Assembly (NCBI GenBank): GCA_964016885.1
Contig: OZ024749.1
Coordinates: 36,580,001 to 36,644,000, forward strand
DNA from: Eledone cirrhosa
Lineage: Eukaryota
Length of the DNA: 64,000 bases
Direction of reading: 5' to 3'
A program made the translations under genes and the position numbers. Shown here one piece after another: positions 7,118 to 56,928 of the stretch. The notes beneath the pieces were generated by a model, which worked only from the letters and a program-made list of their open reading frames with translations, was not told where the DNA came from and made no database searches. Every line of letters begins with the position of its first letter. Position 1 is the first letter of the stretch.

Positions 7118-7619
7118 CTTAATCCACTGTTGTTGTTGTTGTATCTGATGGATTTATTCTGTGGCTGTATTGTTGTATATATATACTGATGGTGGTGATG
7201 GTGGTGGTGCTGGTGGCAAGGATGATGGATGTGGTGGGAAAGAAGATGGATGTGGTGGTGAGGATGATCGTTCTGGGAGTGGGGAAGAAAGAACATTGAG
7301 TAGTGGTGGTGGTGATGATGGTGGAGGATGGTGTGGTAGTGTCTTGGTGGTGGTGGTAGAGCTGAAGACGGTGTGGCAGTGATGGTGGAGGTGAGGACGA
7401 TGTTTGTAGTGGTGGGGAAGAGAATGGTATAGTAGTTTGGTAGTGTTCTGGTGGTGCTATTGGTAGCAGTGGTGGTTATGGTGTGTCAACACTAGATCAA
7501 CAGGAGTGGACATTAACTGCTGTAACAAATTGAACCTTTATAATATTTTAAATGAAGTGCAATCACACCCTCTCTATATAATTCTTTAATCTCAGCAGAT
7601 TTAACTTGATTATCCTTCT

Positions 7620-10600: not shown

Positions 10601-12270
10601 ACCTTCTGCTGGTTTCAGTCATTTGACTGTGGCCATGCTGGAGCACTGCCTACCTTCTGCTGGTTTCAGTCATTTGACTGTGGCCATGCTGGAGCACTGC
10701 CTACCTTCTGCTGGTTTCAGTCATTTGACTGTGGCCATGCTGGAGCACTGACTACCTTCTACTGGTTTCAGTCATTTGACTGTGGCCATGCTGGAGCACT
10801 GCCTACCTTCTGCTGGTTTCAGTCATTTGACTGTGGCCATGCTGGAGCACTGCCTAACTTCTACTGGTTTCAGTCATTTGACTGTGGCCATGCTGGAGCA
10901 CTACCAACCTTCTACTGTTTTCAGTCATTTGACTGTGGCCATGCTGGAGCACTGCCTACCTTCTACTGGTTTTAGTCATTTGACTGTGGCCATGCTGGAG
11001 CACTGCCTACCTTCTACTGGCTTCAGTCATTTGACTGTGGCCATGCTGGAGCACTGCCTACCTTCTACTGGTTTCAGTCATTTGACTGTGGCCATGCTGG
11101 AGCACTACCAACCTTCTACTGTTTTCAGTCATTTGACTGTGGCCATGCTGGAGCACTGCCTACCTTCTACTGGTTTCAGTCATTTGACTGTGGCCATGCT
11201 GGAGCACTGCCTACCTTCTGCTGGTTTCAGTCATTTGACTGTGGCCATGCTGGAGCACTGCCTACCTTCTACTGGTTTCAGTCATTTGACTGTGGCCATG
11301 CTGGAGCACTGCCTACCTTCTGCTGGTTTCAGTCATTTGACTGTGGCCATGCTGGAGCACTGCCTACCTTCTGCTGGTTTCAGTCATTTGACTGTGGCCA
11401 TGCTGGAGCACTGCCTACCTTCTACTGGTTTCAGTCATTTGACTGTGGCCATGCTGGAGCACTGCCTACCTTCTGCTGGTTTCAGTCATTTGACTGTGGC
11501 CATGCTGGAGCACTGCCTACCTTCTGCTGGTTTCAGTCATTTGACTGTGGCCATGCTGGAGCACTGCCTACCTTCTGCTGGTTTCAGTCATTTGACTGTG
11601 GCCATGCTGGAGCACTGCCTACCTTCTACTGGTTTCAGTCATTTGACTGGCCATGCTGGAGCACTGCCTACCTTCTACTGGTTTCAGTCATTTGACTGTG
11701 GCCATGCTGGAGCACTGCCTACCTTCTACTGGTTTCAGTCATTTGACTGTGGCCATGCTGGAGCACTACCTACCTTCTACTGGTTTCAGTCATTTGACTG
11801 TGGCCATTCTGGAGCACTGCCTACCTTCTACTGGTTTCAGTCATTTGACTGTGGCCATGCTGGAGCACTACCTAACTTCTACTGGTTTCAGTCATTTGAC
11901 TGTGGCCATGCTGGAGCACTGCCTACCTTCTACTGGTTTCAGTCATTTGACTGTGGCCATGCTGGAGCACTACCTACCTTCTACTGGTTTCAGTCATTTG
12001 ACTGTGGCCATGCTGGAGCACTGCCTACCTTCTACTGGTTTCAGTCATTTGACTGTGGCCATGCTGGAGTACTACCTACCTTCTACTGGTTTCAGTCATT
12101 TGACTGTGGCCATGCTGGAGTACTGCCTACCTTCTACTGGTTTCAGTCATTTGACTGTGACCATGCTGGAGCACTGCCTACCTTCTACTGGTTTCAGTCA
12201 TTTGACTGTGGCCATGCTGGAGCACTGCCTACCTTCTACTGGTTTCAGTCATTTGACTGTGGCCATGCTG
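7620..12270. repeat. 51-bp minisatellite, ~91 copies
   Basis: Unit actgtggccatgctggagcactgcctaccttctactggtttcagtcatttg. Confidence 0.97.
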
Positions 12271-13545
12271 TGGCAGTGATGGTTTTGATGCTAGTAGTGG
12301 CATTGGTGTGTAGGACAGTGGTGGTGGTAATGGTGGTGGTAGTAGTTGGTGATGGTTGTGGTGGTGGTAGTAGTTGGTGATGGTTGTAGTGGTGGTGGTA
12401 GTGGTAGTAGTTGGTGATGGTTGTGGTGGTGTTGGTAGTGGTAGTAGTCGGTGGTGGTTGTGGTAGTTGGTGGTAGTGTTAGTAGTAGTAGTTGGTGATG
12501 GTTGTGGTGGTGGTGGTAGTTGGTGGTGGTGGTAGTGGTAGTAGTTGATGTTTGTGGTGGTGGTAGTGGTAGTGGTGGTAGTTGGTGATGGTTGTGGTGG
12601 TAGTTGGTGATGGTTGTGGTGGTGGTGGTAGTTGGTGATGATCGTGGTGGTAGTGGTGGTGGTGGTGGTAGTTTGTGATAATGGTAGTGGTGGTAGTTGG
12701 TTGTGGTGGTGATGGTGGTGGATGTAGTCGGTGATGGTTGTGGCGGTGGCGGTGGCAGTGGTGATGATGGTGGTAGTAGTCGGTGATGATCGTGGTAGTG
12801 GTGGCAGTGGTGATGATGGTGGTAGTAGTTGGTGATGGTTGTGGTGGTGGCGGTGGTGGCAGTGGTGATGATGATGGTGGTAGTAGTTGGTGATGGTTGT
12901 GGTGGTGGCGGTGGTGGCAGTGGTGATGATGATGATGGTGGTAGTAGTTGGTGATGATGGTAGTGGTGATGGTGGTGGCCGTGATGTAGGTGTATATCTC
13001 ATTCTTCTGTATTGATCCTCTGTGGCTGAGATTTAGCTGAGCATTTACAGTCTCCTCTCATGTGGATCTTTGCTCACACACATACAAACATGGCCTTACA
13101 CACACACACACGGTCTTACACACACATACATACATGGTCTCACTCCCTCACACACACATGGTCTTATACATACATACATGGCCTTACTCTCTCTCACACA
13201 CATGGTCTTACACACACATACATGGTCTTACTCTCTCACACACACATGGTCTTACACACATACATACATACATGGTCTCACTCCCTACTCCCTCACACAC
13301 AGTGTACATCTATCACATCTGTTGCCTTCAGACCTTATCCTCCTACTACCTCTCTCACTCCACCCTCTCTCACTAGCTCTTTAAATATATCTACCTCTAA
13401 CACATACCGCCACCACCACCACCATCACTACCACCACCACCACCATCACCACCACCACCACCACCACCACCACATCTATCAGTTCACATCTCATATATCA
13501 TCCATAAACCATCAACCATTATATATATTACACTGTCATGTATGT

Positions 13546-15557: not shown

Positions 15558-15750
15558 GGGCGGTGAATTGGCAGTATCGGTAGAGGGTTGGACACCATGC
15601 TTTCTAGCATAGTTACGTCCCTTTACAGTCTGAGTTCAAATCCCACCGAGGTTAACTTTGCCTTTCATCCTTACGGGGTCGATAAAATAAAGTACCAGTA
15701 ATGTACTGGGTAATTGCTGGCCTTGTGCCTAAAGTAGAAACCATTATTAT
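15558..15750 (+). mobile_element. second abundant tRNA-derived SINE family (octopus-type)
   Basis: tggcagtatcggtagag A box, gagttcaaatccc B box, body ctttgcctttcatccttacggggtcgataaaataaagtaccagt, (att)n tail. Confidence 0.85.
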
Positions 15751-18925: not shown

Positions 18926-19492
18926 CAACACATATATACATATATATATATATATATCATGTTTACATTCCATCTAACTAACCAACTAGACTGTCCTTCA
19001 CTGTCCTCCATTTTGAGCTCCTACTTCTCCAGTTGTCACACGTACACACATACACACGTGTGCATGTGTAATTTATGTCATGAACTACATCTCTTGACAG
19101 TGTGTATGTATATATATCATCTTGGTTAAGAGAGTGGGACTGGCTTTGTGCAGTGCCTTTGCTCACTATAAAAGCTTCACGGCACAGGCATTGCTTTATA
19201 TCTGAAGATCTCTCTGCACTTGTCGTCACATGGTACCATGGGCCCAGCACTATGTGTCAATAATTGTCACAAGTGTAGTGTTTGTACCAGAGTTTTCAAG
19301 TCGTTGGCTGGACTAAAAAGTCACACACGTTCAGCGCATCGGTAGGGGTTCTCCTACATGGATATAAAGTAGAGGCCGTACTCGAAAAACGAGTTGGCAG
19401 CCACCATATATATATGTATGGGGGTTGTATCAGTGTGTGTGTGTAATATATGTGTAGTTGGTTAGATTATCAATATTAGCATTATTGGGGCA

Positions 19493-19804: not shown

Positions 19805-19836
<32 letters not shown>

Positions 19837-19838
19837 AT

Positions 19839-20174
19839 ATATATAAGATCAAAAGATGGTTAAATGAGTTCCATGTATTTTATTATGCGCATTTCAAAAA
19901 CAAATATCATCATGCAATAACATTTGTGTTTTCATCAGATAAAATAGGAGGACATGATATGAAGATTAAAAACACTTGTGGATAGTGCAGTTTTAAATCA
20001 ACATATCATTTGTTGATTTAAAACTGCACTATCTACAAGTGTTTTTAACCTTCATATCATGTCCTCCTATTTTATCTGATGAAAACACAAATGTTATTGC
20101 ATGATGATATTTGTTTTTGAAATGCGCATAATAAAATACATGGAACTCATTTAACCATCTTTTGATCTTATATA
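19839..20174. repeat. near-perfect ~165-bp-arm palindrome (7-nt loop) of a hammerhead-bearing element
   Basis: Arms 19839-20003 and 20011-20174 are reverse complements with two differences seen. Followed by tail ctacaataaaactcacctcctaca; flanked by (TA)n. Confidence 0.95.
20068..20138 (+). ncRNA. minimal type I hammerhead motif with palindromic loop III (mirror copy on - strand at 19876-19946)
   Basis: tattttat-CTGATGA-16-bp stem II-GAAA-tgcgca-TA|ataaaata. Perfect 8-bp stem I; TGCGCA palindrome. Confidence 0.8.
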
Positions 20175-20211
20175 TTATGTATACTCCAGTACTACAATAA
20201 AACTCACCTCC

Positions 20212-20255
<44 letters not shown>

Positions 20256-20674: not shown

Positions 20675-20739
20675 TATTTTATCTGATGAAAGCACACCAT
20701 AATTTAACTTGGTGTCCTTGAAATATCTATAATGAAATA
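20675..20739 (+). ncRNA. minimal type I hammerhead motif (family shared with 45632-45697)
   Basis: tattttat-CTGATGA(20683)-aagcacacca...tggtgtcctt-GAAA(20720)-tatcta-TA|atgaaata. Lies in a ~290-bp element (20486-20778) between (TA)n tracts. Confidence 0.7.
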
Positions 20740-25025: not shown

Positions 25026-26467
25026 AGGTTTAAGGGTTGTTTTGAGATTTGGGGACTACTCATAAACCAGACAGATAACCTCCTTACAACCCCTATGTTT
25101 ATATAGCATAATGGTATAGTGCATCATTAGATGCAATAAACTGCATTTATACCAGTTGCATTAACACCATTGTTTGCATGTAAATGCCATTTGATACTCT
25201 CTGCATTTAGTTGTGGTTGTTGTGTGGTGGTTTGTAGTGTGTGTGCGTGCATGTATTTAATGTGTTTTTACTCTGTGTGTAGTGTGATTGGTGAACCCTC
25301 ATCTCTCCCTGCCCCTCAAAAAAACTAGTTGTTTGTCAATGATATATAAACTATATTTCAGAGATGACTCAATTTCACATTACAGCATTGGGTTTGGTAG
25401 GGTACAGTGGGGTGAGAGGGAGTCACCTCCTTCACACCTTATTACATCACCACCACCACCACCACCGACAGAATGGGCTGGAGTGGGGTAGAATCTACTC
25501 CTATCTCTACTCAGCCACAGCTACCCATAATGTGGGGTGGGGTGGAATCAACCCTCTCCTACCCTACAACTACCCCCACCCAGTCAATACTTGCCAGTTT
25601 AGTTGTTGCTTTTCTTTATTTGTGTTTTGTCTCTGTGAATTTGCACTTCCACCACCTCCTTCATCCTCCTCCATCCTCCTCCTCCTTCATCCTCCTCCTC
25701 ATCATCATCCTCAGCTCTCTAGTGAAGCAATGGGTAGCTCCCCTTCTCCTGGCCCCACCCACCCACCCACCATACTGTTTGGTGGAAATGAGTGAGAATG
25801 AAGGTGAAGTGTTATGTTGATATCTAACTTAACCAAGTTTGCAATGGATTTTCTCTCTCCCCCTTTCTCTCTCACTCCTTCTGCTTCTCTTTTCTCCACA
25901 CAAAAACATATGTATATGTGTATATATATATATATATATCATAAAATGCACCTGGTGCACACTGTAGAGTACCTAGTGCACCTCTGAGAGGTCAGTAGCT
26001 TCGACTAAGTACTGACTTGGTCTGTGATGAACCCCGCCAACATTATACTAACATTGAAAAACAGACATGAAATGATGTTGATAATATATGTAAAGTAGTA
26101 GTACTGGTGCCTCAATAAAATGCACCTGGTACACTCTGCAAAGTATTTTGCTTTAGGAAGGGCATCCTGCCATAGAAACCATGTGAAAATGGAACGTATG
26201 TGTAAGACATGGCCATCTGTTTTGTCTAATCTCAGAACATCTCAACCTATGTACATACACTGTAACATGGTTGGTGTTAGGAAGGACATCTGGCTGTTGG
26301 AACCAAGCCAAAATACAGATCCGTGTGAGCAAGATATGGTCTCCAGACCTGACTTGTCTCATAACGTGACAACCCATCTAATCCATGCAAGCATGGAAAA
26401 AAAGACATTAAATGATGATGATATACATATACATACAATATACGAGTATATATATATATATATATAT

Positions 26468-26612
26468 AGGAAAAAGTATGACCCCGACGGCAGAGCTCAA
26501 GCTGTTTCGACGGCTATTTCTGGACTCCATTTCCCACTCTACTACCCTAAGTATTGAGTACTCTGGTGCGTTATGGTCCATTTGGTTCCTTACCACAATT
26601 CCTTTGTTATAT
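26468..26612 (+). mobile_element. copy of the palindrome-plus-tail element lacking the right arm
   Basis: Left arm gaccccgacggcagagctcaagctgtttcgacggcta joined directly to tail cccactctactaccctaagtattgagtac; (TA)n flanks. Confidence 0.8.
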
Positions 26613-26925: not shown

Positions 26926-26976
26926 ATATATATATAAATAAATATACACGGGTATGTATGATTGTGTATAGAAGAT

Positions 26977-27220
26977 TATATTAATAAAAGGAATTCCAAC
27001 TTTGTCTGATTTACTCGTTTAAAATTATAATGATATTGCAATTGGAAACTTGACTGTCACCACTGAATATGAACCTGAAGATTGTGAAAGCATGAAAGTA
27101 CTTGTTCAATTCAAATTTAATATTCTACCATACTATTTCATTATAATATCATTATAATTTTAAAGGATTGAAAATAAAACGAGTAAATCAGACAAAGTTG
27201 GAATTCCTTTTATTAATATA
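26977..27220 (+). mobile_element. fold-back element with ~45-60-bp inverted arms enclosing a degenerate minimal hammerhead (27070-27108)
   Basis: Arm tattaataaaaggaattccaactttgtctgatttactcgttt and its reverse complement. Inside: tgaac-CTGAAGA-ttgtgaaagcat-GAAA-gtac-TT|gttca. Confidence 0.65.
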
Positions 27221-27384
27221 TATATATACATACATACATACACACACACATACACTGCCATCATTGCATATTATCATCAAACATGACATTTCATGGTTGA
27301 TTTTTATTGTTTTAAAACTGTTTCATTTATTTTGAATTAAATGATACACTGCTCTACTGCTATAGGATATATTATACATACACA

Positions 27385-30217: not shown

Positions 30218-33135
30218 TAATGATGATAATAATGAAAATATTGTGTACAGTGCTCAGGTGCACTACAACTCATCAAAAGTGTATGTATAGTACATAGGGT
30301 AATGTACAAACGTCAGGAAAATATATATCATGAGTCATGATATACACGTGTGCATGTGTATGGAAGGGGGGACATCAGGTCTAGTTTTGGAGAATTTCGC
30401 GAAGCATGAGGGTTTTAAAGGATGCAGTGTCTCAACAGCTAACAACTGATGCAGGTAGTTTGTTCCATGGAGGTTTTAAAGGATGCAGTGTCTCGACAGC
30501 TAACAACTGATGCAGGTAGTTTGTTCCATGGAGGTTTTAAAGGATGCAGTGTCTCGACAGCTAACAACTGATGCAGGTAGTTTGTTCCATGGAGGTTTTA
30601 AAGGATGCAGTGTCTCGACAGCTAACAACTGATGCAGGTAGTTTGTTCCATGGAGGTTTTAAAGGATGCAGTGTCTCGACAGCTAACAACTGATGCAGGT
30701 AGTTTGTTCCATGGAGGTTTTAAAGGATGCAGTGTCTCGACAGCTAACAACTGATGCAGGTAGTTTGTTCCATGGAGGTTTTAAAGGATGCAGTGTCTTG
30801 ACAGCTAACAACTGATGCAGGTAGTTTGTTCCATGGAGGTTTTAAGGGATGCAGTGTCTCGACAGCTAACAACTGATGCAGGTAGTTTGTTCCATGGAGG
30901 TTTTAAAGGATGCAGTGTCTCGACAGCTAACAACTGATGCAGGTAGTTTGTTCCATGGAGGTTTTAAAGGATGCAGTGTCTCGACAGCTAACAACTGATG
31001 CAGGTAGTTTGTTCCATGGAGGTTTTAAAGGATGCAGTGCCTCGACAGCTAACAACTGATGCAGGTAGTTTGTTCCATGGAGGTTTTAGAGGATGCAGTG
31101 TCTCGACAGCTAACAACTGATGCAAGTAGTTTGTTCCATGGAGGTTTTAAAGGATGCAGTGTCTCGGCAGCTAACAACTGACGCAGGCAGTTTGTTCCAT
31201 GGAGGTTTTAAAGGATGCAGTGTCTCGACAGCTAACAACTGATGCAGGTAGTTTGTTCCATGGAGGTTTTAAAGGATGCAGTGTCTCGACAGCTAACAAC
31301 TGATGCAGGTAGTTTGTTCCATGGAGGTTTTAGAGGATGCAGTGTCTCGACAGCTAACAACTGACGCAGGCAGTTTGTTCCATGGAGGTTTTAAAGGATG
31401 CAGTGTCTCGACAGCTAACAACTGATGCAGGTAGTTTGTTCCATGGAGGTTTTAAAGGATGCAGTGTCTCGACAGCTAACAACTGATGCAGGTAGTTTGT
31501 TCCATGGAGGTTTTAAAGGATGCAGTGCCTCGACAGCTAACAACTGATGCAGGTAGTTTGTTCCATGGAGGTTTTAAAGGATGCAGTGTCTCGACAGCTA
31601 ACAACTGATGCAGGTAGTTTGTTCCATGGAGGTTTTAAAGGATGCAGTGTCTCGACAGCTAACAACTGATGCAGGTAGTTTGTTCCATGGAGGTTTTAAA
31701 GGATGCAGTGTCTCGACAGCTAACAACTGATGCAGGTAGTTTGTTCCATGGAGGTTTTAAAGGATGCAGTGTCTCGACAGCTAACAACTGATGCAGGTAG
31801 TTTGTTCCATGGAGGTTTTAAAGGATGCAGTGCCTCGACAGCTAACAACTGATGCAGGTAGTTTGTTCCATGGAGGTTTTAAAGGATGCAGTGCCTCGAC
31901 AGCTAACAACTGATGCAGGTAGTTTGTTCCATGGAGGTTTTAAAGGATGCAGTACCTCGACAGCTAACAACTGATGCAGGTAGTTTGTTCCATGGAGGTT
32001 TTAAAGGATGCAGTGTCTCGACAGCTAACGACTGATGTAGGGAGTTTGTTCCATGGAGGTTTTAGAGGATGCAGTGTCTCGACAGCTAACAAATGATGCA
32101 GGTAGTTTGTTCCATGGAGGTTTTAAAGGATGCAATGTCTCGACAGCTAACAACTGATGCAGGTAGTTTGTTCCATGGAGGTTTTAAAGGATGCATGTCT
32201 CGACAGCTAACAACTGACGCAGGCAGTTTGTTCCATGGAGGTTTTAAAGGATGCATGTCTCGACAGCTAACAACTGACGCAGGCAGTTTGTTCCATGGAG
32301 GTTTTAAAGGATGCAGTGTCTCGACAGCTAACGACTGATGTAGGGAGTTTGTTCCATGGAGGTTTTAGAGGATGCAGTGTCTCGACAGCTAACAAATGAT
32401 GCAGGTAGTTTGTTCCATGGAGGTTTTAAAGGATGCAATGTCTCGACAGCTAACAACTGATGCAGGTAGTTTGTTCCATGGAGGTTTTAAAGGATGCATG
32501 TCTCGACAGCTAACAACTGACGCAGGCAGTTTGTTCCATGGAGGTTTTAAAGGATGCATGTCTCGACAGCTAACAACTGACGCAGGCAGTTTGTTCCATG
32601 GAGGTTTTAAAGGATGCAGTGCCTCGGCAGCTAACAACTGATGCAGGTAGTTTGTTCCATGGAGGTTTTAAATGATGCAGTGTCTTGACAGCTAACAACT
32701 GACGCAGGTAGTTTGCTCCATGGAGGTTTTAAAGGATGCAGTGTCTTGACAGCTAACAACTGACGCAGGTAGTTTGTTCCATGGAGGTTTTAAAGGATGC
32801 AGTGTCTCGACAGCTAACAACTGACGCAGGTAGTTTGTTCCATGGAGGTTTTAAAGGATGCAGTGTCTCGGCAGCTAACAACTGACACAGGTAGTTTGCT
32901 CCATGCTTCAGCAACTCTAAGCGTGAAAAAATGTTTCCGAAAGTCATGGGAGCTGTGCTGTTTTCTGACTTTGTAGGCATGTCCACGTGTGTTAGACACA
33001 TGGAGATCAAAAAGGTGCTCAGGGTTGTTGTTGGCGAGATGGTTAAGACCCATACATCCACCCCTTTATACCACCCAACGGCAATGTCTTCCAATATCTT
33101 TCTATTGATTCCAGTCTCAACAGTTTACTGATTCC
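30218..33135 (-). mobile_element. CR1-clade LINE 3' fragment containing an internally amplified 61-bp minisatellite
   Basis: - strand NTRGHAYKVRKQHSSHDFRKHFFTLRVAEAWSKLPVSVVSCRDTASFK (CR1 ORF2 C-terminal signature). 3' UTR and (att)n tail at 30218-30405. Confidence 0.85.
30405..32904. repeat. 61-bp minisatellite, ~41 copies
   Basis: Unit catggaggttttaaaggatgcagtgtctcgacagctaacaactgatgcaggtagtttgttc. Confidence 0.97.
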
Positions 33136-33224: not shown

Positions 33225-33552
33225 GTTTAGGCACGAAGCCAACAATTTTTTGAGGGGAGAGGGGAAAGTCTGTTAAACCGACCCAAGTGTGTCACTGGTA
33301 CTTTATTTTATCGACCTCCGTTAGGATGAAAGGCAAAGCTAACCTCGGTGGGATTTGAACTCAGAATATAATTGTTTCTACTTTAGGCACAAGGCCAGCA
33401 ATTACCCAGTGCATTACTGGTACTTTATTTTATCGACCCCGTAAGGATGAAAGGCAAAGTCAACCTCGGCGGGATTTGAACTCAGATCATAAAGGGACGT
33501 AACTATGCTGGAAGCATGGCGTCCGACCCTCCACCGATACTGCCAATCCACT
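33225..33552 (-). mobile_element. two tandem/nested copies of the second SINE family
   Basis: Two reverse-complement copies of tactttattttatcgacc...ggatgaaaggcaaag...gggatttgaactcaga. Confidence 0.85.
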
Positions 33553-33579: not shown

Positions 33580-35335
33580 ACTAGCTAAACCTACATAGGT
33601 GTGAGCTGTAACAACCACCTGATATGACTGGGTCTCCTATCGTTAAAACACCCAAGAAACCTCCTATGAGATAAAAACCTTATAGGAGGCTACTTAAACC
33701 AACATAGGTGAAAGTTGTAATGGCTTCTTGATAGGAATAGGGGCCTATATTATTAACACACCCAAGAAGACTCCTATGAAATACAACCTTGTAGGAGGCT
33801 AGCTAAACCTACAAAAGTACGAGCTGTAACATGATAGGAGCTGGGCTCCTATCGTTAAAACATCCAAGAAACCTTCTATGAGTGAGCTGTAACAACACAA
33901 CAGGACTTGGGCCCCTATTGTTAAAACATCCAAGAAACCTATGAAATAAAACCTTATAAGAGGCTAGTTAAACCTACATAGTTATGAGCTGTTACAACAT
34001 GATTAGACTAGGGGCCCTTATCATTAAATACCCAAGAAACCTCCTATAGGAGGCCAGCTAAACCTACATAGTTATGAGCTATTACAACATGATTAGACTG
34101 GGGGCCCTTATCATTAAATACCCAAGAAACCTCCTATAGGAGGCCAGCAAAACCTACATAGTTATGAGCTGTTACAACATGATTAGACTGGGGTCCCTTA
34201 TCATTAAATACCCAAGAAACCTCCTATAGGAGGCCAGCAAAACCTACATAGTTATGAGCTGTTACAACATGATTAGACTGGGGTCCCTTATCATTAAATA
34301 CCCAAGAAACCTCCTATAGGAGGCCAGCAAAACCTACATAGTTATGAGCTGTTACAACATGATTAGACTGGGGTCCCTTATCATTAAATACCCAAGAAAC
34401 CTCCTATAGGAGGCCAGCAAAACCTACATAGTTATGAGCTGTTACAACATGATTAGACTGGGGTCCCTTATCATTAAATACCCAAGAAACCTCCTATAGG
34501 AGGCCAGCAAAACCTACATAGTTATGAGCTGTTACAACATGATTAGACTGGGGTCCCTTATCATTAAATACCCAAGAAACCTCCTATAGGAGGCCAGCAA
34601 AACCTACATAGTTATGAGCTGTTACAACATGATTAGACTGGGGGCCCTTATCATTAAATACCCAAGAAACCTCCTATAGGAGGCCAGCAAAACCTACATA
34701 GTTATGAGCTGTTACAACATGATTAGACTGGGGGCCCTTATCATTAAATACCCAAGAAACCTCCTATAGGAGGCCAGCAAAACCTACATAGTTATGAGCT
34801 GTTACAACATGATTAGACTGGGGTCCCTTATCATTAAATACCCAAGAAACCTCCTATAGGAGGCCAGCAAAACCTACATAGTTATGAGCTGTTACAACAT
34901 GATTAGACTGGGGTCCCTTATCATTAAATGCCCAAGAAACCTCCTATAGGAGGCCAGCTAAACCTACATAGTTATGAACTGTTACAACATGATTAGACTG
35001 GGGGCTCTTATCATTAAATACCCAAGAAACCTCCTATAGGAGGCCAGCAAAACCTACATAGTTATGAGCTGTTACAACATGATTAGACTGGGGTCCCTTA
35101 TCATTAAATGCCCAAGAAACCTCCTATAGGAGGCCAGCTAAACCTACATAGTTATGAACTGTTACAACATGATTAGACTGGGGGCTCTTATCATTAAATA
35201 CCCAAGAAACCTCCTATAGGAGGCCAGCAAAACCTACATAGTTATGAGCTGTTACAACATGATTGAACTGGGGGCCCTTATCATTAAATACCCAAGAAAC
35301 CTCCTATAGGAGGCCAGCAAAACCTACATAGGTGT
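33580..35335. repeat. 90-bp minisatellite (~15 copies from ~33960) preceded by longer diverged units
   Basis: Unit aggccagcaaaacctacatagttatgagctgttacaacatgattagactggggtcccttatcattaaatacccaagaaacctcctatagg. Confidence 0.95.
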
Positions 35336-38029
35336 GAGCCTTAAATAATTTAATTTTCAAATATCTTTCACGTTTAGTCTGATGCACTAATAACCCTACA
35401 TCAATCTGCCATCTAGTTTGTAATAAAAGACAGTGGCACGAGGAAGGTGGAGGAATGGAAGACATATTGAAATGTAGTTCGGGATGGGGGAGGGAGGGGT
35501 TGTTTGTTTGTTTTCAATATTTTCTAGACACCAGTGGCAATAAATCACATTGTCAGGAAGTTGGAGAATATTTCATCTGGTGGCAGTGGGCAGTGTGTGG
35601 GGGGGTGTGGGGGAAGGGGAGTCTCTAAACTATCATGGCACCAATAACTAAATATTGGAAATGGTCGATAATCAATAATAGTGGTGATGTGTGGTGGTGG
35701 TGGTGGTGGTGGTGGTGATGTTGTTGATGGTAGTTGTGTAGTACTTGGTCCACTGGCACAACCGGATTTGATTGACTACTACTACTACTACTATTACCAC
35801 CACCACTACTATCACCACCACCACCACTACTACTAATTCCACCATCATTACTATTACTATTACTACTACTAATTACTACCATCACCACTACTTCTATTAC
35901 TGCTTTCTCTACTACTTTCATTCCTCTAGGGGTTGATAAAATATGATACCAGTCATGTACTAGGGTATATTTAGGATATAAAACACATGTATGTATACTA
36001 TGACTAACTTTGTCTTTTATTTTTCTGCGCTCGTCCTATACTGGGGTAGATTTAATATTCATCTTAGATTTGTATGTGAATTATAATAGAAGACTAAGGC
36101 AAACTTTAATATTCTTATGGAGCTGATAAACATATGGTACCAGTTATGTACTGAGTGTCATCTAATCAACTGTTGCTGCTTTCAATATGTGCCAAGAAAG
36201 GTTTTGTTTTAACCCTTCCATTGCCATATTTCTAGTGAAAGATACTGCCTATGATTTTCAAATAATTTTGAAAATATTCAAGAAGTTGCAGGGATTTAGT
36301 TATATAACTAACTTTCTCATTATTATTAATATTTAACTGTTGCAAATAATTTTGAAAATATTAGAATTTTGAAGGGTTTAGTAACACAGGTAAAATTCCA
36401 TTATAATGAATACCATCATAACAAATGTTTCAGTTTAACAAAATTTATGCTCAATCTCATTATAAAAAATTTTTTCGTTACAATAAATTTATTTTTATAC
36501 CCTGTGAATTTCATTGTATACCTAACTTTCACATTATATTTACTATTTAGCTATTTCAAATAATTAAGGATTTTGAGGGGTTTAGTAATATAATTAACTT
36601 TCTCGTTATTCAGCTGGTGTTTGGAGCATAACATAACAATGGTCCTTACTTAACAACAGGTCTTCAATAAAATTATGATGAAAAGTTTTTAGATAAATAT
36701 AAAACAGACATTTCATGATGATAATGATAAAGACTTTAAAATAAATAGCTTTTTATCCTCGAACCAGGGCCAGTTTCAGGCTGTTTGGCATGAAAAGTGT
36801 TATTAATCCATCCCAACAAACAATAGTTACTCCTTCACATGGTGTGTGATATTTTATACACACCATTCACTGTGTGTATGGTCCCCCCCCCCCCCCCCCA
36901 CCTCTTCCTCCTGTTGGACATAAAAGCTGTATATTTTAATAATGCCAGTCTTGAAATGAAATATTAAATTATTCCATACTGTTTCCATGGTAACTGGCTA
37001 GTTTTTCCATTGTCTTCATTTTATTTTAATCATCTCTTAATAACATCATTTCCATATAGCTTGTGTATTGTGTGTGTGTCTATGCATGGATGCATGGACT
37101 GTATGTGTATATTTGTGTGTGTGTGTATGTGGATATATATATATGTGTGTGTGTGTGTGTATGTGGACAGTATATTGACTGTGTCTATGTGCAAGTATTT
37201 TGTATTCACTGTGTCTATGTATGTATGTGTCTGAAGTAAACATGGCCAGTATTTGGTGTGCATTGTGTGTGTGTGTGTGTGTGTATGTGTACCAAATGTA
37301 CTAATTGTAGTCACATTGTATGTGTGTGTGTGTACCAATGTGCTGATGGTAATACATATGTGCATTGTGTGTGTGTACCAAATGTACTAATTGTAGTCAC
37401 ATTGTATATGTGTGTGTGTACCAAATATACTGATGGTAGTACATGTGTGTGTATGTGTGTACCAAATATACTGATGGTAGTACATATGTGTGTGTGTGTG
37501 TGTACCAAATATACTGATGGTAGTACATATGTGTGTGTGTGTACCAAATATACTGATGGTAGTACCTGTCTGTGTACCAAATATACTGATGGTAGTACAT
37601 GTCTGTGTACCAATGTACTGATGGTAATACATACTAGTGTGTATGTGAAAACTGATACCATATTGTTTTACAATAGTCTCCCCTCAATGACTTCAACATC
37701 TGGCAGTGTTTACAATAATACCAAGTCATTGAGTACTCAATACTGCACTGTACTGTGTTGTACTACACTACACTGTACTACACTACACTACACTGCACTG
37801 CACTACACTACACTACACTACACTACACTACACTGCACTACACTGCACTGCACTACACTACACTACATTGCACTACACTACACTGCACTGTACTGCACTA
37901 CACTATACTATACTACACTACACTACACGTAGAGTGTAAACATTGTTATTTATTATAGAAACGGCTTCTACAGGACTAGAACTGTTTCATTCATTGAACT
38001 TACAATTGCTCTAGGCTTGTAATGTTATA

Positions 38030-42067: not shown

Positions 42068-42225
42068 ATAGGAAAAAGAAGTTGAAATGCAATTGGAGTC
42101 TTTAAGGAGGTATATTTACAATAATTTATAAGATTACCAGTTTCACAAGTTTCATGATTTTTGTAAGTTATTGTAAATAAACCTTCTTAAAGACTCCAAT
42201 TGCATTTTCAACTTCTTTTTCCTAT
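42068..42225. repeat. ~65-bp-arm imperfect palindrome (fold-back/MITE-like) next to (TA)n
   Basis: ataggaaaaagaagttgaaatgcaattggagtctttaag... and ...cttaaagactccaattgcattttcaacttctttttcctat. Confidence 0.8.
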
Positions 42226-42267
42226 GTTTACCTGTGTGGGATATATTTAAAATAAACCTTACTTTTG

Positions 42268-42298
<31 letters not shown>

Positions 42299-43561: not shown

Positions 43562-43733
43562 TGTAAAATCCCAACTGCAGTTCCAAGTCTGTGTGTTCAG
43601 CAAGCCTTTTCAAGGGTGTAGTCAGGATTTTACACATCTCTATACCCACTATGCATCTACCCATGCATTGAGTACTTCCATGATTAATGTGTGTGTGTCC
43701 CCGTCTCAACACCACAGACTGACTCTCTCTCTC

Positions 43734-43786
<53 letters not shown>

Positions 43787-43792
<6 letters not shown>

Positions 43793-43942
43793 AGAATTAG
43801 GACCCCGACGGCTGAGCTCTGGCCATTTCGACATCCGTCAGGGTCCTAATTCTTTTCATATTACCCACTCAACTACCCCAGGTATCGAGTGCACTAGTGC
43901 ATTATGGTCCACCTGGTATCTTACCACACTCTCTTTGTTATA
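43787..43942 (+). mobile_element. diverged copy of the palindrome-plus-tail element with shortened palindrome
   Basis: atgaaaagaattaggaccccgacgg...ccgtcagggtcctaattcttttcat plus homologous tail; (TA)n flanks. Confidence 0.8.
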
Positions 43943-44009
43943 TATATATGTATATATATATATATATATATATAATATAAGATCAAAAGATGGTTAAAAG
44001 AGTTCCAAG

Positions 44010-44080
44010 TATTTTATTATGCGCATTTCAAAAACAAATATCATCATGAGATGATATTTCCGTTTTCATCAGATAAAATA
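44010..44080 (-). ncRNA. minimal hammerhead motif, second copy of the 19839-20174 family (single arm, element ~43975-44280)
   Basis: Reverse strand reads tattttat-CTGATGA-stem II-GAAA-tgcgca-TA|ataaaata. Same downstream tail ctacaataaaactcacctcctaca at ~44257-44280. Confidence 0.75.
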
Positions 44081-44276
44081 GGGATACATGATATGAAGGT
44101 TAAAAAACACTTGTGAATAGTGAAGTTTTAAATCAACATATGAAAAATAATTTAAGATTGATGTGTGATATTGGGAAAAAAAGAGGGGGAGGGGGTTGGA
44201 AAGGGTAAGGAAGAGGAGGAGATGAGAGTAAAGAATGGTGGGGGAGGAGTATTGTGCTACAATAAAACTCACCTCC

Positions 44277-44309
<33 letters not shown>

Positions 44310-44314
<5 letters not shown>

Positions 44315-44530
44315 AACGCGTAGGACCCCGACGGCTGAGCTCAAGCTGTTTCGACGGCTAATTCTGGATTAAACTCTGGACTAAATTTAGTCCAGAATTA
44401 GCCGTCGAAACGGCTTGAGCTCAGCCGTCGGGGTCCTACTCGTTCCTATTACCCACTCTACTACCCTAAGTATTGAGTACTTTGGTGCGTTATGGTCCAC
44501 CTGGTTCCTTACCACATTTCCTTCGTTATA
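44310..44530 (+). mobile_element. palindrome-plus-tail element (half-hammerhead family) in (TA)n
   Basis: ~65-bp arms ataggaacg.gtaggaccccgacggctgagctcaagc.gtttcgacggctaattctgga and their reverse complement, then an 80-bp unique tail. The right arm has GAAAC-ggct-tgagctc-agcc-GTC. Confidence 0.85.
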
Positions 44531-44781: not shown

Positions 44782-44958
44782 AGCTTTGTTTGACTATGAT
44801 CCCACTAAGGACAGTGGGTTGCCCAGTAAAGGTTTAGCATTTAAATACGGTGACATTTTACACGTCACTAATGCCAGTGATGATGAGTGGTGGCAAGCCA
44901 AACGTATCACCCCAGAAGGGGAAGAAGAAGGAATGGGGATCATCCCAAGTAAAAGACG
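44782..44958 (+). CDS. dlg1: dlg1 exon: SH3 domain
   Basis: ttccag|...|gtaaaa; 177 nt, phase 2 to 2, in frame with the previous exon. (R)[58 protein letters not shown](R) is the canonical DLG SH3. Confidence 0.97.
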
Positions 44959-45854: not shown

Positions 45855-46224
45855 TATATCAACTAGAAATTGATTGACATATATATATATATATCTAAAA
45901 TAAACACATGAAACAATCACAGGGAATAATTTGTAAAGTGTGGAAGCACACACAGCTAGGTAGGTAACTAATGGTATTTCAAATATTTTATATCTATATT
46001 TTCATTTGACCAAACTTCTCAAAGCATTCCTACAAACGATAAATGCATACATAGATTCACACACACATGATTAATCATTTTAAAAGGTATCTATATTTGA
46101 AGTTCTAGTTAAACTTTAATTAGTTACCTACCTAGCTGTGTGTGCTTGCACACTTTACACATTATCCCGTGATTGTTTCATGTGTTTATTTTAGATATAT
46201 GTCAATCAATTTCAAGTTGATATA
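45855..46224. mobile_element. MITE-like element with ~100-bp terminal inverted repeats
   Basis: 45855-45971 is the reverse complement of 46120-46224 (e.g. cacacacagctaggtaggtaactaa / ttagttacctacctagctgtgtgtg). Confidence 0.75.
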
Positions 46225-46923: not shown

Positions 46924-47511
46924 TATATAAATATACACATATACACAGACACACAGACACACACCATAATTGAACACTGTATACATTTGTTTTCATGTGT
47001 GTGTACATGTATGAATATGACTGCAAATATACATGTATGTGTGTACATCAATATATATGACTATGTAAGTATACATGTGTATGTACATGTATGTATATGA
47101 TTGTAAGTATACTTTTTGTGCGTGTGTTGTACATGTATGTATATTTATGTATTTGCCTGCTTGTATACACTCGTGTGTATATATGTGCACATGTATACAT
47201 GTGCATGTGTGTGTATATGTGTGTGTACATGTGTGTGATATCAAAGTGATATCAAGTTCAATGACTAAAACCAGTAAATATTTAAATTTCTTGAGACTGC
47301 CTGCTTTTGGTGGGTCATTGGGGGGGGGGGGGGAGTAAACACTAGTTGTGTATGTCAGTGACATTGCTAATGTATGATCAGCGGTGTGGTGTTGTGTGGG
47401 CGACAGCGGTGTGATGTTGTGTGGGCAACAGCGGTGTGATGTTGTATGGTCAGTGGTGTGGTGTGGTCAGCAGTGATGTTACCAATAATTTCTGTTGTTG
47501 ACCAATTGCAG

Positions 47512-47620
47512 GTGGCGGCGGCAAATGAGAAACGTAAAAGCAATTTCTCATTCTCTCGGAAGTTTCCATTTATGAAGAGCAAGGACCACAGTGGTAGTGA
47601 GGATGTAAGCGCTGATGAAC
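47512..47620 (+). CDS. dlg1: dlg1 exon: HOOK insert homologous to SAP97 I3 (protein 4.1-binding)
   Basis: ttgcag|...|gtaagt; 109 nt, phase 0 to 1. VAAANEKRKSNFSFSRKFPFMKSKDHSGSEDVSADE contains the conserved FSRKFPF motif. Confidence 0.93.
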
Positions 47621-49537: not shown

Positions 49538-49862
49538 GCCATGATACATTTTTCAATGATGATCTTGCTCACTTGATTATTTAACCACTATCGTGATTTC
49601 ATCAGACAGCAAAATTGAGTAAAAGGTTTTGCTGTCTGATTCTTCTTCTTATCGTGTCCACAAGAATGTCAGCTACAAAGCTTGGCTAGATGTGGTTCTG
49701 CCACAGCTGAACACATTGCTGTCCTTTCTCATTAAACTTTGCCAAGTCCAATGCTGTGCAGGGGTGTTCCAGCAGGGGGCATATCAGTAGGTGCTGCTGT
49801 CTGATGAAATCACAATATTGGTTAAATAATCAAATGTCCAAGATGGTCATTGAAATATGTAT
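49538..49862. mobile_element. inverted-repeat element whose ~70-bp arms each carry a degenerate hammerhead motif
   Basis: 49544-49611 is the reverse complement of 49794-49862. The - strand arm reads gctgt-CTGATGA-...-GAAA-aatgta-TC|atggc; + strand CTGATGA at 49801. Confidence 0.55.
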
Positions 49863-50832: not shown

Positions 50833-51690
50833 GGGCAGTGGATTGGCAGTATCGGTAGAAGGTTGGATGCCATGCTTTGACGCATAGAGTTACGGCCCTT
50901 GCCATTCTGAGTTCAAATCCCGCCGAGGTTAACTTTGCCTTTCATCCTTACGGGGTCGATAAAATAAAGTACCAGTAATACACTGGGTAATTGCTGGCCT
51001 TATGCCAAAAGTAGAAACAATAAATATTAATTAAAAATAATCTTTTTTTTTAAATTTAAATGACTGAATTTTTTTAAAATAATTTTCTTTAATTCTGTTA
51101 ATATAATTAGAGTGTCGGACAAAATGCTTTGATGTATTTGTTATGGTTCTTTGTTTTGAGTTCAAATCCCACAGTGGTCAACTTTACCTTTTATCCCTGT
51201 GGGGGTCAATAAAATAAGCTACCAGTGAAATACTGGTTTAATATAATCAGCCATCACTAATCCCGAATTGCTGGGTTTAAGGCTAAGTTAGAAACCATTA
51301 TCATTATTATTATTATTATTATTAGGATGATGGATTGACTGTGTCAGTAGAACATCAGACACCATGCTTTGTAGCATGGAGTTATGGTCCTTTACGTTCT
51401 GAGTTCAAATCCCGCGGAGGTTAACTTTGCCTCTCATCCTTACGGGGTCGATAAAATAAAGTACCAGTAATACACTGGGATCGATTTAATCGATGTTCCT
51501 TTCCCCCCAAAAAAATTACTGGTATTGTGCCTAATGTAGAAACCATTATTATTTGGAGGTATATTGGCAGAATTAGTAGAGTTTCGAATATAACAAAATA
51601 CCGACAAAATACTAGGGTTGTTGATTCAGACAATTTTCCTCTACCCCAAAATTGCTGGTATTGTGTCTAAGTTAGAAACAATTAATATTA
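50833..51690 (+). mobile_element. cluster of second-family SINE copies (50833-51020, 51105-51300, 51325-51548, fragment to ~51690)
   Basis: Same A/B box head and body motif. Further + strand copies at 52560-52742, 56265-56457, 56461-56682 and 58527-58745. Confidence 0.8.
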
Positions 51691-52337: not shown

Positions 52338-52547
52338 ATAACGAAGGAAATGTGGTAAGGAACCAGGTGGACCATAACGCACCAAAGTACTCAATACTTA
52401 GGGTAGTAGAGTGGGTAATAGGAACGAGTAGGACCCCGACGGCTGAGCTCAAGCCGTTTCGACGGCTAATTCTGGACTAAAGATTTTAGTCCAGAATTAG
52501 CCGTCGAAACGGCTTGAGCTCAGCCGTCGGTCTCCTACTCGTTCCTA
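52338..52547 (-). mobile_element. palindrome-plus-tail element, inverted copy of 44310-44530
   Basis: Tail 52338-52420 is the exact reverse complement of 44448-44530. Same palindrome; (TA)n flanks. Confidence 0.85.
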
Positions 52548-54274
52548 TATATATATGTATTGGCAGTATCGGTAGAGGGTCTGATGCCATGCTTTGCAGC
52601 AAAGAGTTGCGGCCCTTTACGGTCTGAGTTCAAATCCTGCTGAGGTTAACTTTGCCTTTCATCCTTACGGGGGTCGATAAAATAAAGTACCAGTAATGCA
52701 CTGTGATAATTGTCGGCCTTGTGCCAAAGGTAGAAATAATTATATATGTAATAGGTATGTATATGTCTGTATGTATATATATGGATGCATATATATATGT
52801 GTGTGTATGTGTATGCATATATAAATGTGTATGTATGTATATATGTGTGTATATATATATAAATACATACACACACATATATATATATACTTACACACAT
52901 ATACAGGATGCAATTGTGGAAAAATGGATCTAAAAATGATGATGACTGGATGTTTTCAATGCTAGAAAAAGCAATCACTGAAACTTCGAAGTCACTGCCA
53001 AATTATTCTTCAGAATATATATTTAATGGTCCAAGTTTTCCCATCTTATTAGGCATTTTTTTATTGTCAAAAACTTGCATTGAAGCAGTTAGCTTTAAAT
53101 AAACCATATCTCTCTCTCTCTATATATATATATATGTATATACACACAAATAGATGTTATGACTATCACTCATATATATATATATATATACATACATACA
53201 CCTACCTACCTATGTGTCTCATAAACTAGCAGTTTCATTAAAAAAAATGAGATTGATAAAAATTTGTAGCAGACTTGGATTGATATGATTGATTAAATTT
53301 CTTCAAGACTGTGCCCCAGGATGGCCTCAGTCTAATGAGTGAAATGCATGAAAGAATTTTAAAAAAATATTTACACAGTGAAATAGGGCTGTCTAACTGA
53401 AATGCTGTCAACAGACACTGTGTGTTAAGACTGTATATGAAAGGTCCTTCTGCAGGGATTACAGATGATAGATTCCTTGAGTAAGGACCACAACTGCAAG
53501 GTCCATTATATAGGGACCACAAATGATAGGTACCTTTTATAGAGACCTTGTTTATATGTTAACTGTCAACAGACACCTTGAGGATTTAGAAGTGAAAAGG
53601 TACCTTATGCTGTGTACCTGTGTAGGGCTCCTGTCCTATCATGGAAAGCAATGTTAAATGAAGTGTCTTGCTCGCTACACAACACAGTACCTTGTCCCAG
53701 AATTGAACCTACAACATTATACTTGTGAGTCAAACACCCTAACCACTAGGCCACAAGACCTTGTTTATAAATTAAATGCCAAGAATTTGATGTAGATAGT
53801 ATTGAGACATTATAAACATGGATTTGCTGTAAAAACTGAGAAATGAATGAAGTCCACCTATTCTTGTTTTGTCTGGTAACAGAACATATGATGATGGGGG
53901 TGGGGTGCAGAGTTGGTTAACGTGTGTGTATGTGTAGGTGTCATTTAGTCCTAACAGAAGCAGACAGTAAAGGTTTAATATTACTCAGGTACATCCAGCA
54001 TTGAATGATGACAATTGCTGCCCTAAACACCTATCTGTAAAGCCTTCAAAAGAGGTGTTGCAGGGGTTGGGTAAGAGGATAAAACTGTTCTCAGGGCCCC
54101 ATGAGAATTCATACAAAATTCAAGGGTATCACATTCCTTAAATCTGTTGTTACCATCTTTCTAATGAAAGGCACTGTGCTCTATGGTTTTCTAATAATTT
54201 TTAATATAATCAAATTTGTGGAATGATTTAGTAATATAACTTTCTCATTATCAAGCCTGTGTTTAGAACAGAAC

Positions 54275-54562: not shown

Positions 54563-55254
54563 GGTATCACAAAATTATGATTGAAGGTTCTTAAATAAAT
54601 ATAAACACTTTAATATAAACAATTTTGTTTCACAGAAACAGGGAAGGTTTCAGGTGGTTTGGTACTATAACATAAGGCTCTTACATAACACTATGATGGA
54701 AAGATTTTACATAAATATAAGCATTTCAAAATAAGCAGTTTTGCACCATAGAACCAAGGGTGGTTTGTTATCAAAAGGGCTAACACATCTTTAACAGTAT
54801 TTACTGTTATTTTGATAACCCATTGCTGTCTACAACTGTTTCAACTAACTGACACACACACACGCACACGCACGCACACAAATACACAAATATAGATATA
54901 CATCACAAGTACACATGTACACACACATTTGCTCATTATTTAAATTTATTCTTATTTGCTTGCCTTTGTTTGGTATCATTTTTATTACTTTTTAAAATGT
55001 TTAATTTATTTTTTGTTTAACCCTTTCATTACCATATTTCTAATAAAAGACACTGTTTATAGTTTTGAAAATATTTTCAAAATAATTAAAGGTTCATGTG
55101 AAGTTTCCTTAATGTCACATGTATTGATGCCACAGATGACAAGTACCTCTGTGGGTGCCAGGGTTCAATGATATCTACTATCATGGGTTCATAGCAGCAG
55201 TAGTTTGTATTCAAATGTTTCTCTGCTTATTGGAGTCACTAAGTATCATATTAT

Positions 55255-56215
55255 CCACTACTAACATCAGGTAACTAATATATTCACCTGTTGGTTAATG
55301 TGTCTTATTATTTTCTAACACCAGGTAACTAGTGCTCACCTGTGGGTTAAGGTATCATAATAATTACCACTAACACAAGGTAACTAGTACATTCACCTGT
55401 TAGTTAAGGCATTTTATGATTTAGTACTAACATCAGGTAACTAGTACTCACCTGTGGGTTAAGGTATCAATAATTACCACTAACACAAGGTAACTAGTAC
55501 ATTCACCTGTTAGTTAAGGTATTTTATTATTTAGTACTAACATCAGGTAACTAGTACTCACCTGTGGGTTAAGGTATCAATAATTACCACTAACACCAAG
55601 TAACGAGTACATTCACCTGTTAGTTAAGGTATTTTATTATTTAGTACTAACATCAGGTAACTAGTACTCACCTGTGGGTTAAGGTATCAATAATTACCAC
55701 TAACACAAGGTAACTAGTACATTCACCTGTTAGTTAAGGTATTTTATTATTTAGTACTAACATCAGGTAACTAGTACTCACCTGTGGGTTAAGGTATCAA
55801 TAATTACCACTAACACAAGGTAACTAGTACATTCACCTGTTAGTTAAGGTATTTTATTATTTAGTACTAACATCAGGTAACTAGTACTCACCTGTGGGTT
55901 AAGGTATCAATAATTACCACTAACACCAAGTAACGAGTACATTCACCTGTTAGTTAAGGTATTTTATTATTTAGTACTAACATCAGGTAACTAGTACTCA
56001 CCTGTGGGTTAAGGTATCAATAATTACCACTAACACCAAGTAACGAGTACATTCACCTGTTAGTTAAGGTATTTTATTATTTAGTACTAGCACCAGGCAA
56101 CTAGTATGTCTACTTGTTGGTTAAGGTATCATATTTAATACTAACATTAGTTAACTAGTATGTTTACCTGTTAATTACTATTAACACCAGGCAACTAGTA
56201 CATTCACCTGTTGGT
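55255..56215. repeat. 110-bp dimeric minisatellite (two ~55-bp monomers)
   Basis: ctagtactcacctgtgggtt recurs every 110 bp (55441, 55551, 55661...). Both monomers contain actaac..aggtaactagtac..cacctgt. Confidence 0.95.
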
Positions 56216-56928
56216 TACAATTTAAACTGGAATTCATTTATTATTTTTTTGTTGCATTAATTATGGTTGTGGATTGACAGTATCAGTAGAGGGTCTGACA
56301 CCATGCTTTGCAACGTGGAGTTACGGCCCTTTGCGGTCTGAGTTCAAATCCCGCCGAGGTTAACTTTGCCTTTCATCCTTACGGGGTCGATAAAATAAAG
56401 TACCACTAATGCACTGGGGTAATTGCTGGCCTTGTGCCAATAGTAGAAACAATTATTATAGGGTGGTGGATTGGCAGTATTAGTGGAGGGTCGAACGCCA
56501 TGCTCTGTGGCATAGTTACGACCCTTTACAGTCTGAGTTCAAATCCTGCCGAGGTTAGCTTTGCTTTTCATCCTTACGGGGTCATTGAAATAAAATACCA
56601 GTAACACACTGAGGTCGATTTAATCGACTTTCCCCACCCCACAAAATTGTTGGCCTTGTGCCAAAATCAAAAACCATTATTATTAGTGTTTATTTCCATC
56701 TCACTAAAAGTTCCTGCTCCACTGTGTATTAGCACCCTCTACCACTCCCCCCCCCCCCCCCCACACCCACACCACCACTACCACCAGCTTTCTCCTCTCT
56801 TTAGATTTAGTTTGCCATTCTCCTCAGTTCTGCTTCTTTTGATATGTTGGGTTTAATATATTCTTCATTACAACATGTCCATATTTTTTCCTGAAATTTG
56901 TCTTTCTTTCTCTCTCTCTCTCTCTTCA

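Follow-up and report, generated by a model that had tools for sequence, protein, structure and literature searches.

Short palindrome-plus-tail repeats in (TA)n of Eledone cirrhosa: probable truncated ends of a Penelope-like element, cut off within a hammerhead motif

Results

Four repeats in (TA)n tracts

The 64-kb stretch of Eledone cirrhosa DNA analysed here (the window) contains, on the plus strand, an exon in which Pfam identifies an SH3 domain; a basic exon-like stretch lies further on, and we take the two together to resemble a Discs-large/MAGUK gene. It also holds long tandem arrays with periods of 51 and about 61, 90 and 110 nt, an abundant SINE-like family of about 190 nt and a C2H2 zinc-finger-like stretch that falls below the Pfam cut-off (Table 1). 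None of the 113 window frames of at least 55 aa matched a reverse transcriptase or GIY-YIG domain in Pfam, and the two frames that did have matches correspond to the SH3 domain and to a weak C2H2.

Four copies (A to D) of a short repeat lie in the window, and blastn and nhmmer searches of the window returned none beyond them. The first-pass annotation had likewise listed four copies, all of them in (TA)n, and both the searches and the flanks bear this out: (TA)n borders each copy on both sides, an AT-rich microsatellite target within which the target-site duplication of the focal copies is unreadable. Just 5' of copy A, a stretch that weakly resembles the beginning of the tail (43643-43677, within 43618-43689) had E values of 0.17-0.5, is possibly a chance similarity and was dropped as a fifth copy. 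One of the SINE-like copies begins 8 nt past copy D.

The family had been described as a palindrome followed by a tail. This is accurate for A, B and D, in which an inverted copy stands head-to-head with a direct copy, but not for C, which retains the inverted arm alone and is no palindrome; the four are not alike. Outer and inner arms measure 46 and 27 nt in A, 64 and 64 in B, about 61 and 0 in C, and 64 and 64 in D; the junction between the arms differs in every copy (four junctions in four copies), and the tail, 79 nt long, is present at one end only in all four. Terminal inverted repeats at both ends were not found: the tail lies outside the repeat and the internal structure is not fixed. 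The direct arm and tail of D are identical to those of B, from which the tails of C and A differ at 6 and 15 of 83 positions, respectively. Copy C shares one C-to-T change with the outer arm of B, which would suit a grouping of the arms by side; because it falls at a CpG we take it, short of proof, as recurrent. The private changes of B and D all lie on the outer arms, with 3-4 events in about 125 nt against none in 294 nt (p 0.026 or 0.008), in a post hoc comparison of small numbers in which assembly error is possible; they weakly favour a separate synthesis of that arm.

Table 1. Repeats and other features of the window, with coordinates counted from its first nucleotide.
Feature	Coordinates	Strand	Remarks
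Copy A	43785..43940	+	diverged subfamily
Copy A, outer arm	to 43832		
Copy A, inner arm	43833-43861	+	short, no GAAA
Copy A, tail	43862-43940	+	
Copy B	44310..44528	+	
Copy B, inverted (outer) arm	44310..44373	-	tail-less, ends at (TA)n
Copy B, centre	44374..44385		12 nt; short duplication giving a nested mini-palindrome (44375-44396)
Copy B, direct arm	44386..44449	+	3' strand of candidate helix II, GAAA, helix III, UC site, candidate helix I 3' strand
Copy B, tail	44450..44528	+	79 nt, one end only
Copy C	26466..26609	+	inverted arm to about 26526, fused to tail (26531-26609); direct arm absent
Copy D	52339..52548	-	
Copy D, tail	52339-52417		
Copy D, direct arm	52418-52481		
Copy D, centre	52482-52484		3 nt
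Copy D, inverted arm	52485-52548		
F2 copy a	19835..20215	+	two facing 176-nt arms in (TA)n, tail of ~30 nt on one side
F2 copy b	43972..44280	+	between A and B, in (TA)n; long inverted arm, then ~30-nt tail alone, as in C
Other-family hammerhead motifs near (TA)n	20365, 20683, 45640 (+), 49605 (-), 49801 (+)		
Third palindrome-plus-tail element	42068-42285		between microsatellites
Inverted-arm element	26935-27225	-	between (TA)n runs; unpaired middle of ~100 nt, short tail
Degenerate palindrome	45855-46224		370 nt, 72% self-match
SH3 exon	44783-44899	+	Pfam
Basic exon-like stretch	about 47500-47610		
C2H2 zinc-finger-like stretch	19172-19342	+	
Long tandem arrays	7500-12400, 30405-32905, 33580-35340, 55243-56217		
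SINE-like family	15563-15750, 33368-33552, 50838-51027, 52556-52745, 56269-56460, and others		

Half a hammerhead in the arm

In copy B, GAAA (44407-44410) is followed by six helix III pairs, counting A15.1-U16.1, a loop with the palindrome GAGCTC, a UC site (44428-44429) and a candidate helix I 3' strand (44430-44436). On the tail strand this full half-hammerhead occurs in B (44310) and D (52339) only, where GAAA, a helix III with A15.1-U16.1 and a UH site are found as in type I hammerheads. The arm motif had been ascribed to the family as a whole; it is present in these two copies and missing from the tail strand of A and C. The CUGANGA core and the helix I 5' strand are absent from all four copies, and no core precedes GAAA, in agreement with the first-pass annotation. 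The observation that the inverted arm sits in the place of the natural 5' strand was also correct: in sequence this arm complements the direct arm exactly and is distinct from the natural 5' strand, and it is therefore a templated copy. The focal copies themselves are not ribozymes.

Dinucleotide shuffles of the arm, which were carried out post hoc and do not preserve its internal repeat, yielded at least 5 pairs on one strand in 199 of 20000 cases and at least 6 in 73 of 20000; overall, chance produces the half-motif in about 1% of arm shuffles when one strand is counted and in 2.3% when either strand may hold it. Across the whole window it is matched 51 times at 5 pairs and 22 times at 6. 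Among the 150 of 171 Rfam matches listed (E up to 1) there was no hammerhead; these matches were of miRNA type, mostly over simple repeats, with one snoRNA and one tRNA, and none reached the gathering score. As a piece of sequence, the half-motif by itself is thus suggestive, modest evidence for a hammerhead origin, and it probably represents the 3' half of a PLE-type hammerhead.

A family of similar layout with complete hammerheads

Another family of the window, F2, is unrelated to the focal one and alike in layout. In F2 copy a, both arms have their own complete minimal type I hammerhead, one with its core at 19938 on the minus strand and the other at 20076 on the plus strand, with an 8-pair helix I, CUGAUGA, a long helix II, GAAA and a palindromic loop 3. 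Copy b, which falls within the interval that the first-pass annotation had delimited (43787..44530) and went unmentioned there, has its complete minimal hammerhead in minus orientation, with the core at 44072. The arms of copy a match each other against copy b at 15 sites, and grouping by side is backed at 2. A strict scan of the window detected 8 complete hammerhead motifs, 7 of which passed the filters, as against 2 in 20 block shuffles taken together. Given the F2 layout and this excess, the hairpin-plus-tail arrangement in (TA)n accompanies PLE-type hammerheads in this DNA.

Several further elements were observed in the window (Table 1). The centre of F2 copy a lies at a 6-bp palindrome that is also found in the longer arm of copy b, the upstream part of which is pyrimidine-rich. 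Among the hammerhead motifs of other families, those at 20683 and 45640 are related, and those at 49605 and 49801 form an inverted pair, the latter matching a loose pattern only. The third palindrome-plus-tail element has a tail-less end that starts with ATAGGAA, as in the focal family, and no hammerhead core was seen in it. The inverted-arm element and the degenerate palindrome complete this set.

The family in public reads

Four public runs (X1, X20, X5 and X4) were aligned to copy D, which was matched by 21063 contigs of X1, 23796 reads of X20, 536 records of X5 and 3 of X4. The focal family is very abundant; contig depths were not taken as copy numbers. The read tables cover the 40 best-supported of 101 variants, 15 of 85 joints and 20 of 470 loose ends. 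Exact arm and tail patterns had no occurrence in metagenome contigs, viral contigs and prokaryote genomes, collections that are not expected to include an animal repeat. Among the sequencing runs listed as containing the family there was no RNA run, an absence that has no bearing on expression.

The (TA)n tract abuts the tail-less end of the arm at one fixed place in 101 X1 contigs and 3536 X20 reads, and because it precedes that end at a single place, an inverted arm with a fixed outer end is a general trait of the family. A subfamily whose arm start is 2 nt longer shows its variant letters both beside the tail (183 contigs, 2050 reads) and beside (TA)n (70 contigs, 1113 reads). Copy A agrees with this subfamily in length and in most letters and departs from its consensus at three letters, on both arms; these may be private or may mark a smaller subfamily. 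The variants of copy A had been regarded as private to its two arms. They are indeed common to both arms as opposed to B and D, but the reads identify most of them as subfamily markers, with those three letters left over. Arms group by copy or subfamily and not by side, both in the reads and in F2 copy a against copy b, which is the direction that the first-pass annotation had anticipated. Another subfamily diverges from copy D for a median of 80 letters in 1245 X20 reads, which possibly stem from few loci. About 30% of the X1 depth has T52444A, which disrupts the sixth helix III pair, as does the CG subfamily variant.

The centre of the palindrome varies in the reads, with deletions of 1, 3, 4 and 6 letters, and the centre of D itself amounts to less than 1% of the arm depth in X1, a figure to be read with the poor sequencing and assembly of hairpins in mind. 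In 13 of the 15 joints listed (of 85; mirror images across the axis in two cases), the distance between the tip and the end of the inverted arm is 2-9 nt, and the tail-bearing side of those joints ends anywhere from 52378 to 52470 (92 nt), 9 of them inside the tail. Several of the joints listed have 1-4 filler letters only, a structure like that of copy C. Inverted-arm ends hence concentrate near the tip of what appears to be a natural hairpin 5' of GAAA.

The evidence for this hairpin comes from longer relatives. Two contigs of X4, the run of another organism (depth 3-5), continue for 131 and 126 letters unlike copy D, and they are not palindromes, since the depth of X4 shows no second piece on copy D. 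The visible loose letters (two X4 contigs; 28 and 32 X1 contigs) read GGCTATTT and CTAAA and are complementary to the arm, with CCAGG where the palindromic copies have CTGGA. Paired by eye, and with the helix base outside the visible letters, the longer relatives appear to have an imperfect natural hairpin directly before GAAA, which is a candidate helix II. Loose ends are readable to 30 letters, and the place expected for CUGANGA lies beyond.

A sharp drop in X20 depth at 52471, with 7124 molecule ends, was considered as an end of the element and rejected as a biological one. As X20 is a RAD library, the position falls on an AATT, and T occupies 52469 in 2474 of 3417 continuing reads, these ends are read as a restriction cut, and the 804 ends at 52481 in X20 probably have the same cause.

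Discussion

Relation to described elements

The layout of the focal family is not new, for it is the published PLE structure of an inverted pLTR plus tail. Insertions of PLEs have been described with an adjacent inverted, 5'-truncated copy, a tail at one end and palindromes at the junction (PMC3846280; PMC8557442), and the EN+ groups among them (Penelope/Poseidon, Neptune and Nematis) resemble the focal copies, as far as these accounts go, in the tail-less head-to-head inverted copy, the one-end tail, the junction palindrome, the AT-rich or microsatellite target and the hammerhead-like motif in the terminal repeat. The focal copies differ from these elements as described in having no ORF between the arms, a truncation that falls inside the hammerhead, an inverted arm that often exceeds the direct copy and a tail of 79 nt instead of the 30-40 bp given for PLEs (PMC3846280; PMC8557442; PMC11167929). 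Naiads, PLEs that are reported from Octopus, are alike in their preference for (TA)n, their inverted 5'-truncated copy and their tail, but are reported to be without canonical hammerheads, whereas the focal family has a half-motif (PMC8557442). By its SINE-like repeats and microsatellites the window appears octopus-like. In Octopus vulgaris, 31 recently active PLE families have been counted (PMC13282606).

With regard to the motif itself, the minimal type I hammerheads of metazoan PLEs as reported (PMC4209133) are matched in the C before GAAA, the palindromic loop 3, the UH site and, possibly, the long helix II, and motif pairs on opposite strands, 100-700 bp apart, have been noted in the same account. 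The focal copies depart from them in the absence of the 5' half in all four copies and in a helix III of 5-6 pairs against 0-2, in which they come nearer to the variants described for PLEs of fungi and protists (PMC4209133). Animal non-LTR retrozymes are likewise short, non-coding and pLTR-related, but are described as tandem units with a type I hammerhead each (bioRxiv 10.64898/2026.07.22.740005); the focal copies are dispersed and head-to-head, with no tandem units and no complete motif. A description of the focal family was not found in the literature searched, mostly the main texts of freely accessible papers, and an existing annotation elsewhere, Repbase and Dfam included, is quite possible. 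Of 11 papers listed on the subject, none joined 'pLTR' with 'twin priming'.

Truncated PLE ends and the making of the inverted arm

The direct observations are a tail-less inverted arm placed head-to-head with a direct copy and its tail, junctions that vary while the outer ends do not, and longer relatives in which a natural hairpin can be paired by eye. On these grounds the focal copies are probably dead, very short, 5'-truncated insertions of the pLTR of an EN+ Penelope-like element that targets (TA)n. Neither CUGANGA nor a PLE ORF was seen, and hence it is by inference that we posit a parent with a complete type I hammerhead. Membership in the PLEs is a probable assignment based on layout and context. 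The absence of CUGANGA and of the helix I 5' strand, the 79-nt tail and the long helix III all count against it, as does the fact that B and D reach the same tip, which is what an inherited palindromic master would yield.

In such insertions, reverse transcription would stop inside helix II, and the catalytic 5' half would consequently never be copied. The inverted arm was probably made at insertion, and two routes may be envisaged for it. Purified PLE protein has been reported to cut and extend both target strands in vitro at AT-rich DNA, and to start at two RNA sites, one on either side of the tail (PMC11167929). Each of the two cut target ends might prime, one cDNA starting at the outer site and including the tail, the other starting at the inner site and lacking it. 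The two cDNAs would then join head-to-head, a step that we ourselves infer, mostly through the self-complementary tip of helix II and by end-joining if one of the cDNAs is short. The other route is fold-back self-priming at the tip of helix II followed by one-sided deletions. Self-priming has been put forward as a hypothesis for PLE inversion (PMC3846280), and the origin of PLE inverted repeats and tails has been called open (PMC8557442).

Fold-back was also the route favoured by the first-pass annotation. It accounts well for an arm that is templated and ends at the tip of the stem II hairpin, but it cannot give an inverted arm longer than the direct copy, because a folded cDNA copies only what has already been made. 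Longer inverted arms are nonetheless found in A, C, F2 copy b and 13 of the 15 joints listed (of 85). A single fold-back is therefore insufficient, and two-ended priming or a later one-sided deletion fits better; within the PLE model, we lean slightly towards two-ended priming over fold-back with one-sided deletion.

Competing origins

One alternative is an inherited arm. The repeats could be non-autonomous PLE derivatives whose master was already palindromic and was retrotransposed whole, their centres being altered later by breakage and repair at the tip while conversion kept the arms alike. Such a history would suit the identical direct arms and tails and the equally long arms of B and D, the subfamily variants on both arms (as expected of subfamily masters) and the arm ends piled up at the tip in 13 of the 15 listed joints (of 85), where a hairpin would break. 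It sits badly, however, with a difference at the centre between B and D, two otherwise identical young copies, with private changes confined to their outer arms (subject to the post hoc nature of that test and to assembly error), and with the low share of D's centre in X1 arm depth, allowing for the poor sequencing of hairpins. Moreover, truncation of a whole palindromic RNA should shorten the outer end, and yet the outer end is fixed. We regard this history as rather unlikely. Beyond PLEs, an ordinary non-autonomous DNA element in TA, either a MITE or of Helentron type, would leave GAAA and GUC as a coincidence arising from the internal repeat and hairpin of the arm. The focal copies do resemble MITEs in being short, highly repeated, hairpin-forming and flanked by TA, no ORF or CUGANGA was seen, and the half-motif is found in about 1% to 2.3% of shuffles. 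MITEs, on the other hand, have terminal inverted repeats and a fixed structure. Here 79 nt separate the inverted repeat from the end of the element on one side, which leaves it non-terminal; the ends of the element do not match each other in inverted orientation, and the structure varies among copies. Helentron-associated non-autonomous elements have short subterminal inverted repeats, a 3' hairpin and a TT target, unlike the adjacent 64-bp arms and (TA)n flanks of the focal family. The existence of longer, non-palindromic relatives and the occurrence of the same layout in the unrelated F2, with its complete hammerheads, make a DNA element more difficult still to sustain, and we consider it improbable.

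A function for the remaining half was suggested by the first-pass annotation, as a trans-cleavage substrate for a full-length element RNA, which would let host introns bearing it be cut. Trans-cleavage in a helix I/II format is known from the ribozyme literature, and the half retained is the part that a substrate would require. GAAA and GUC show no variant among the best-supported 40 of 101 variants in the read data, and the focal copies lie near the plus-strand SH3 exon and are probably intronic. Nevertheless, the hairpin predicted for copy D has a folding energy of -135.8 kcal/mol (z -16.7), and the predicted unpaired probability of GAAA is 0.001 in B and D, the very copies that have the site on the tail strand. 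With the site locked inside the hairpin, trans-cleavage is unsupported and the suggestion fails for both. As for the others, A has no GAAA on the tail strand and C has no arm there, and their antisense halves, although predicted to be exposed (0.97 and 0.70), have a helix III damaged by changes. In addition, PLE hammerheads are reported to cleave poorly in vitro (PMC4209133) or to depend on the protein of the element (PMC11167929). A substrate role seems very improbable, and the half-ribozyme is probably functionless in the focal copies.

Conclusions

The four repeats are most likely the cut-off ends of a PLE, copied only to the middle of a ribozyme motif, an insertion type that has been described before and is for the most part unremarkable. 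Beyond this, two features are of use, namely the asymmetry between the arms and the accumulation of arm ends at the helix II tip. A further reading, which we hold to be unlikely, would turn the family into a parasite of PLEs, non-autonomous yet self-propagating, whose hammerhead has shed its catalytic half, with an RNA that needs the arm and tail only and a palindrome rebuilt at each insertion by twin-primed cDNAs annealing at the helix II tip. If this were true, twin-primed cDNAs would be joined at helix II, which would then have a role other than cleavage, and the two truncation points of the joining reaction could be charted from thousands of copies. Such PLE stumps are readily misfiled as MITEs. 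In a family as abundant as this, whose outer ends are both fixed and whose junctions cluster at a single hairpin tip, an assembly alone could separate fold-back from two-ended priming.
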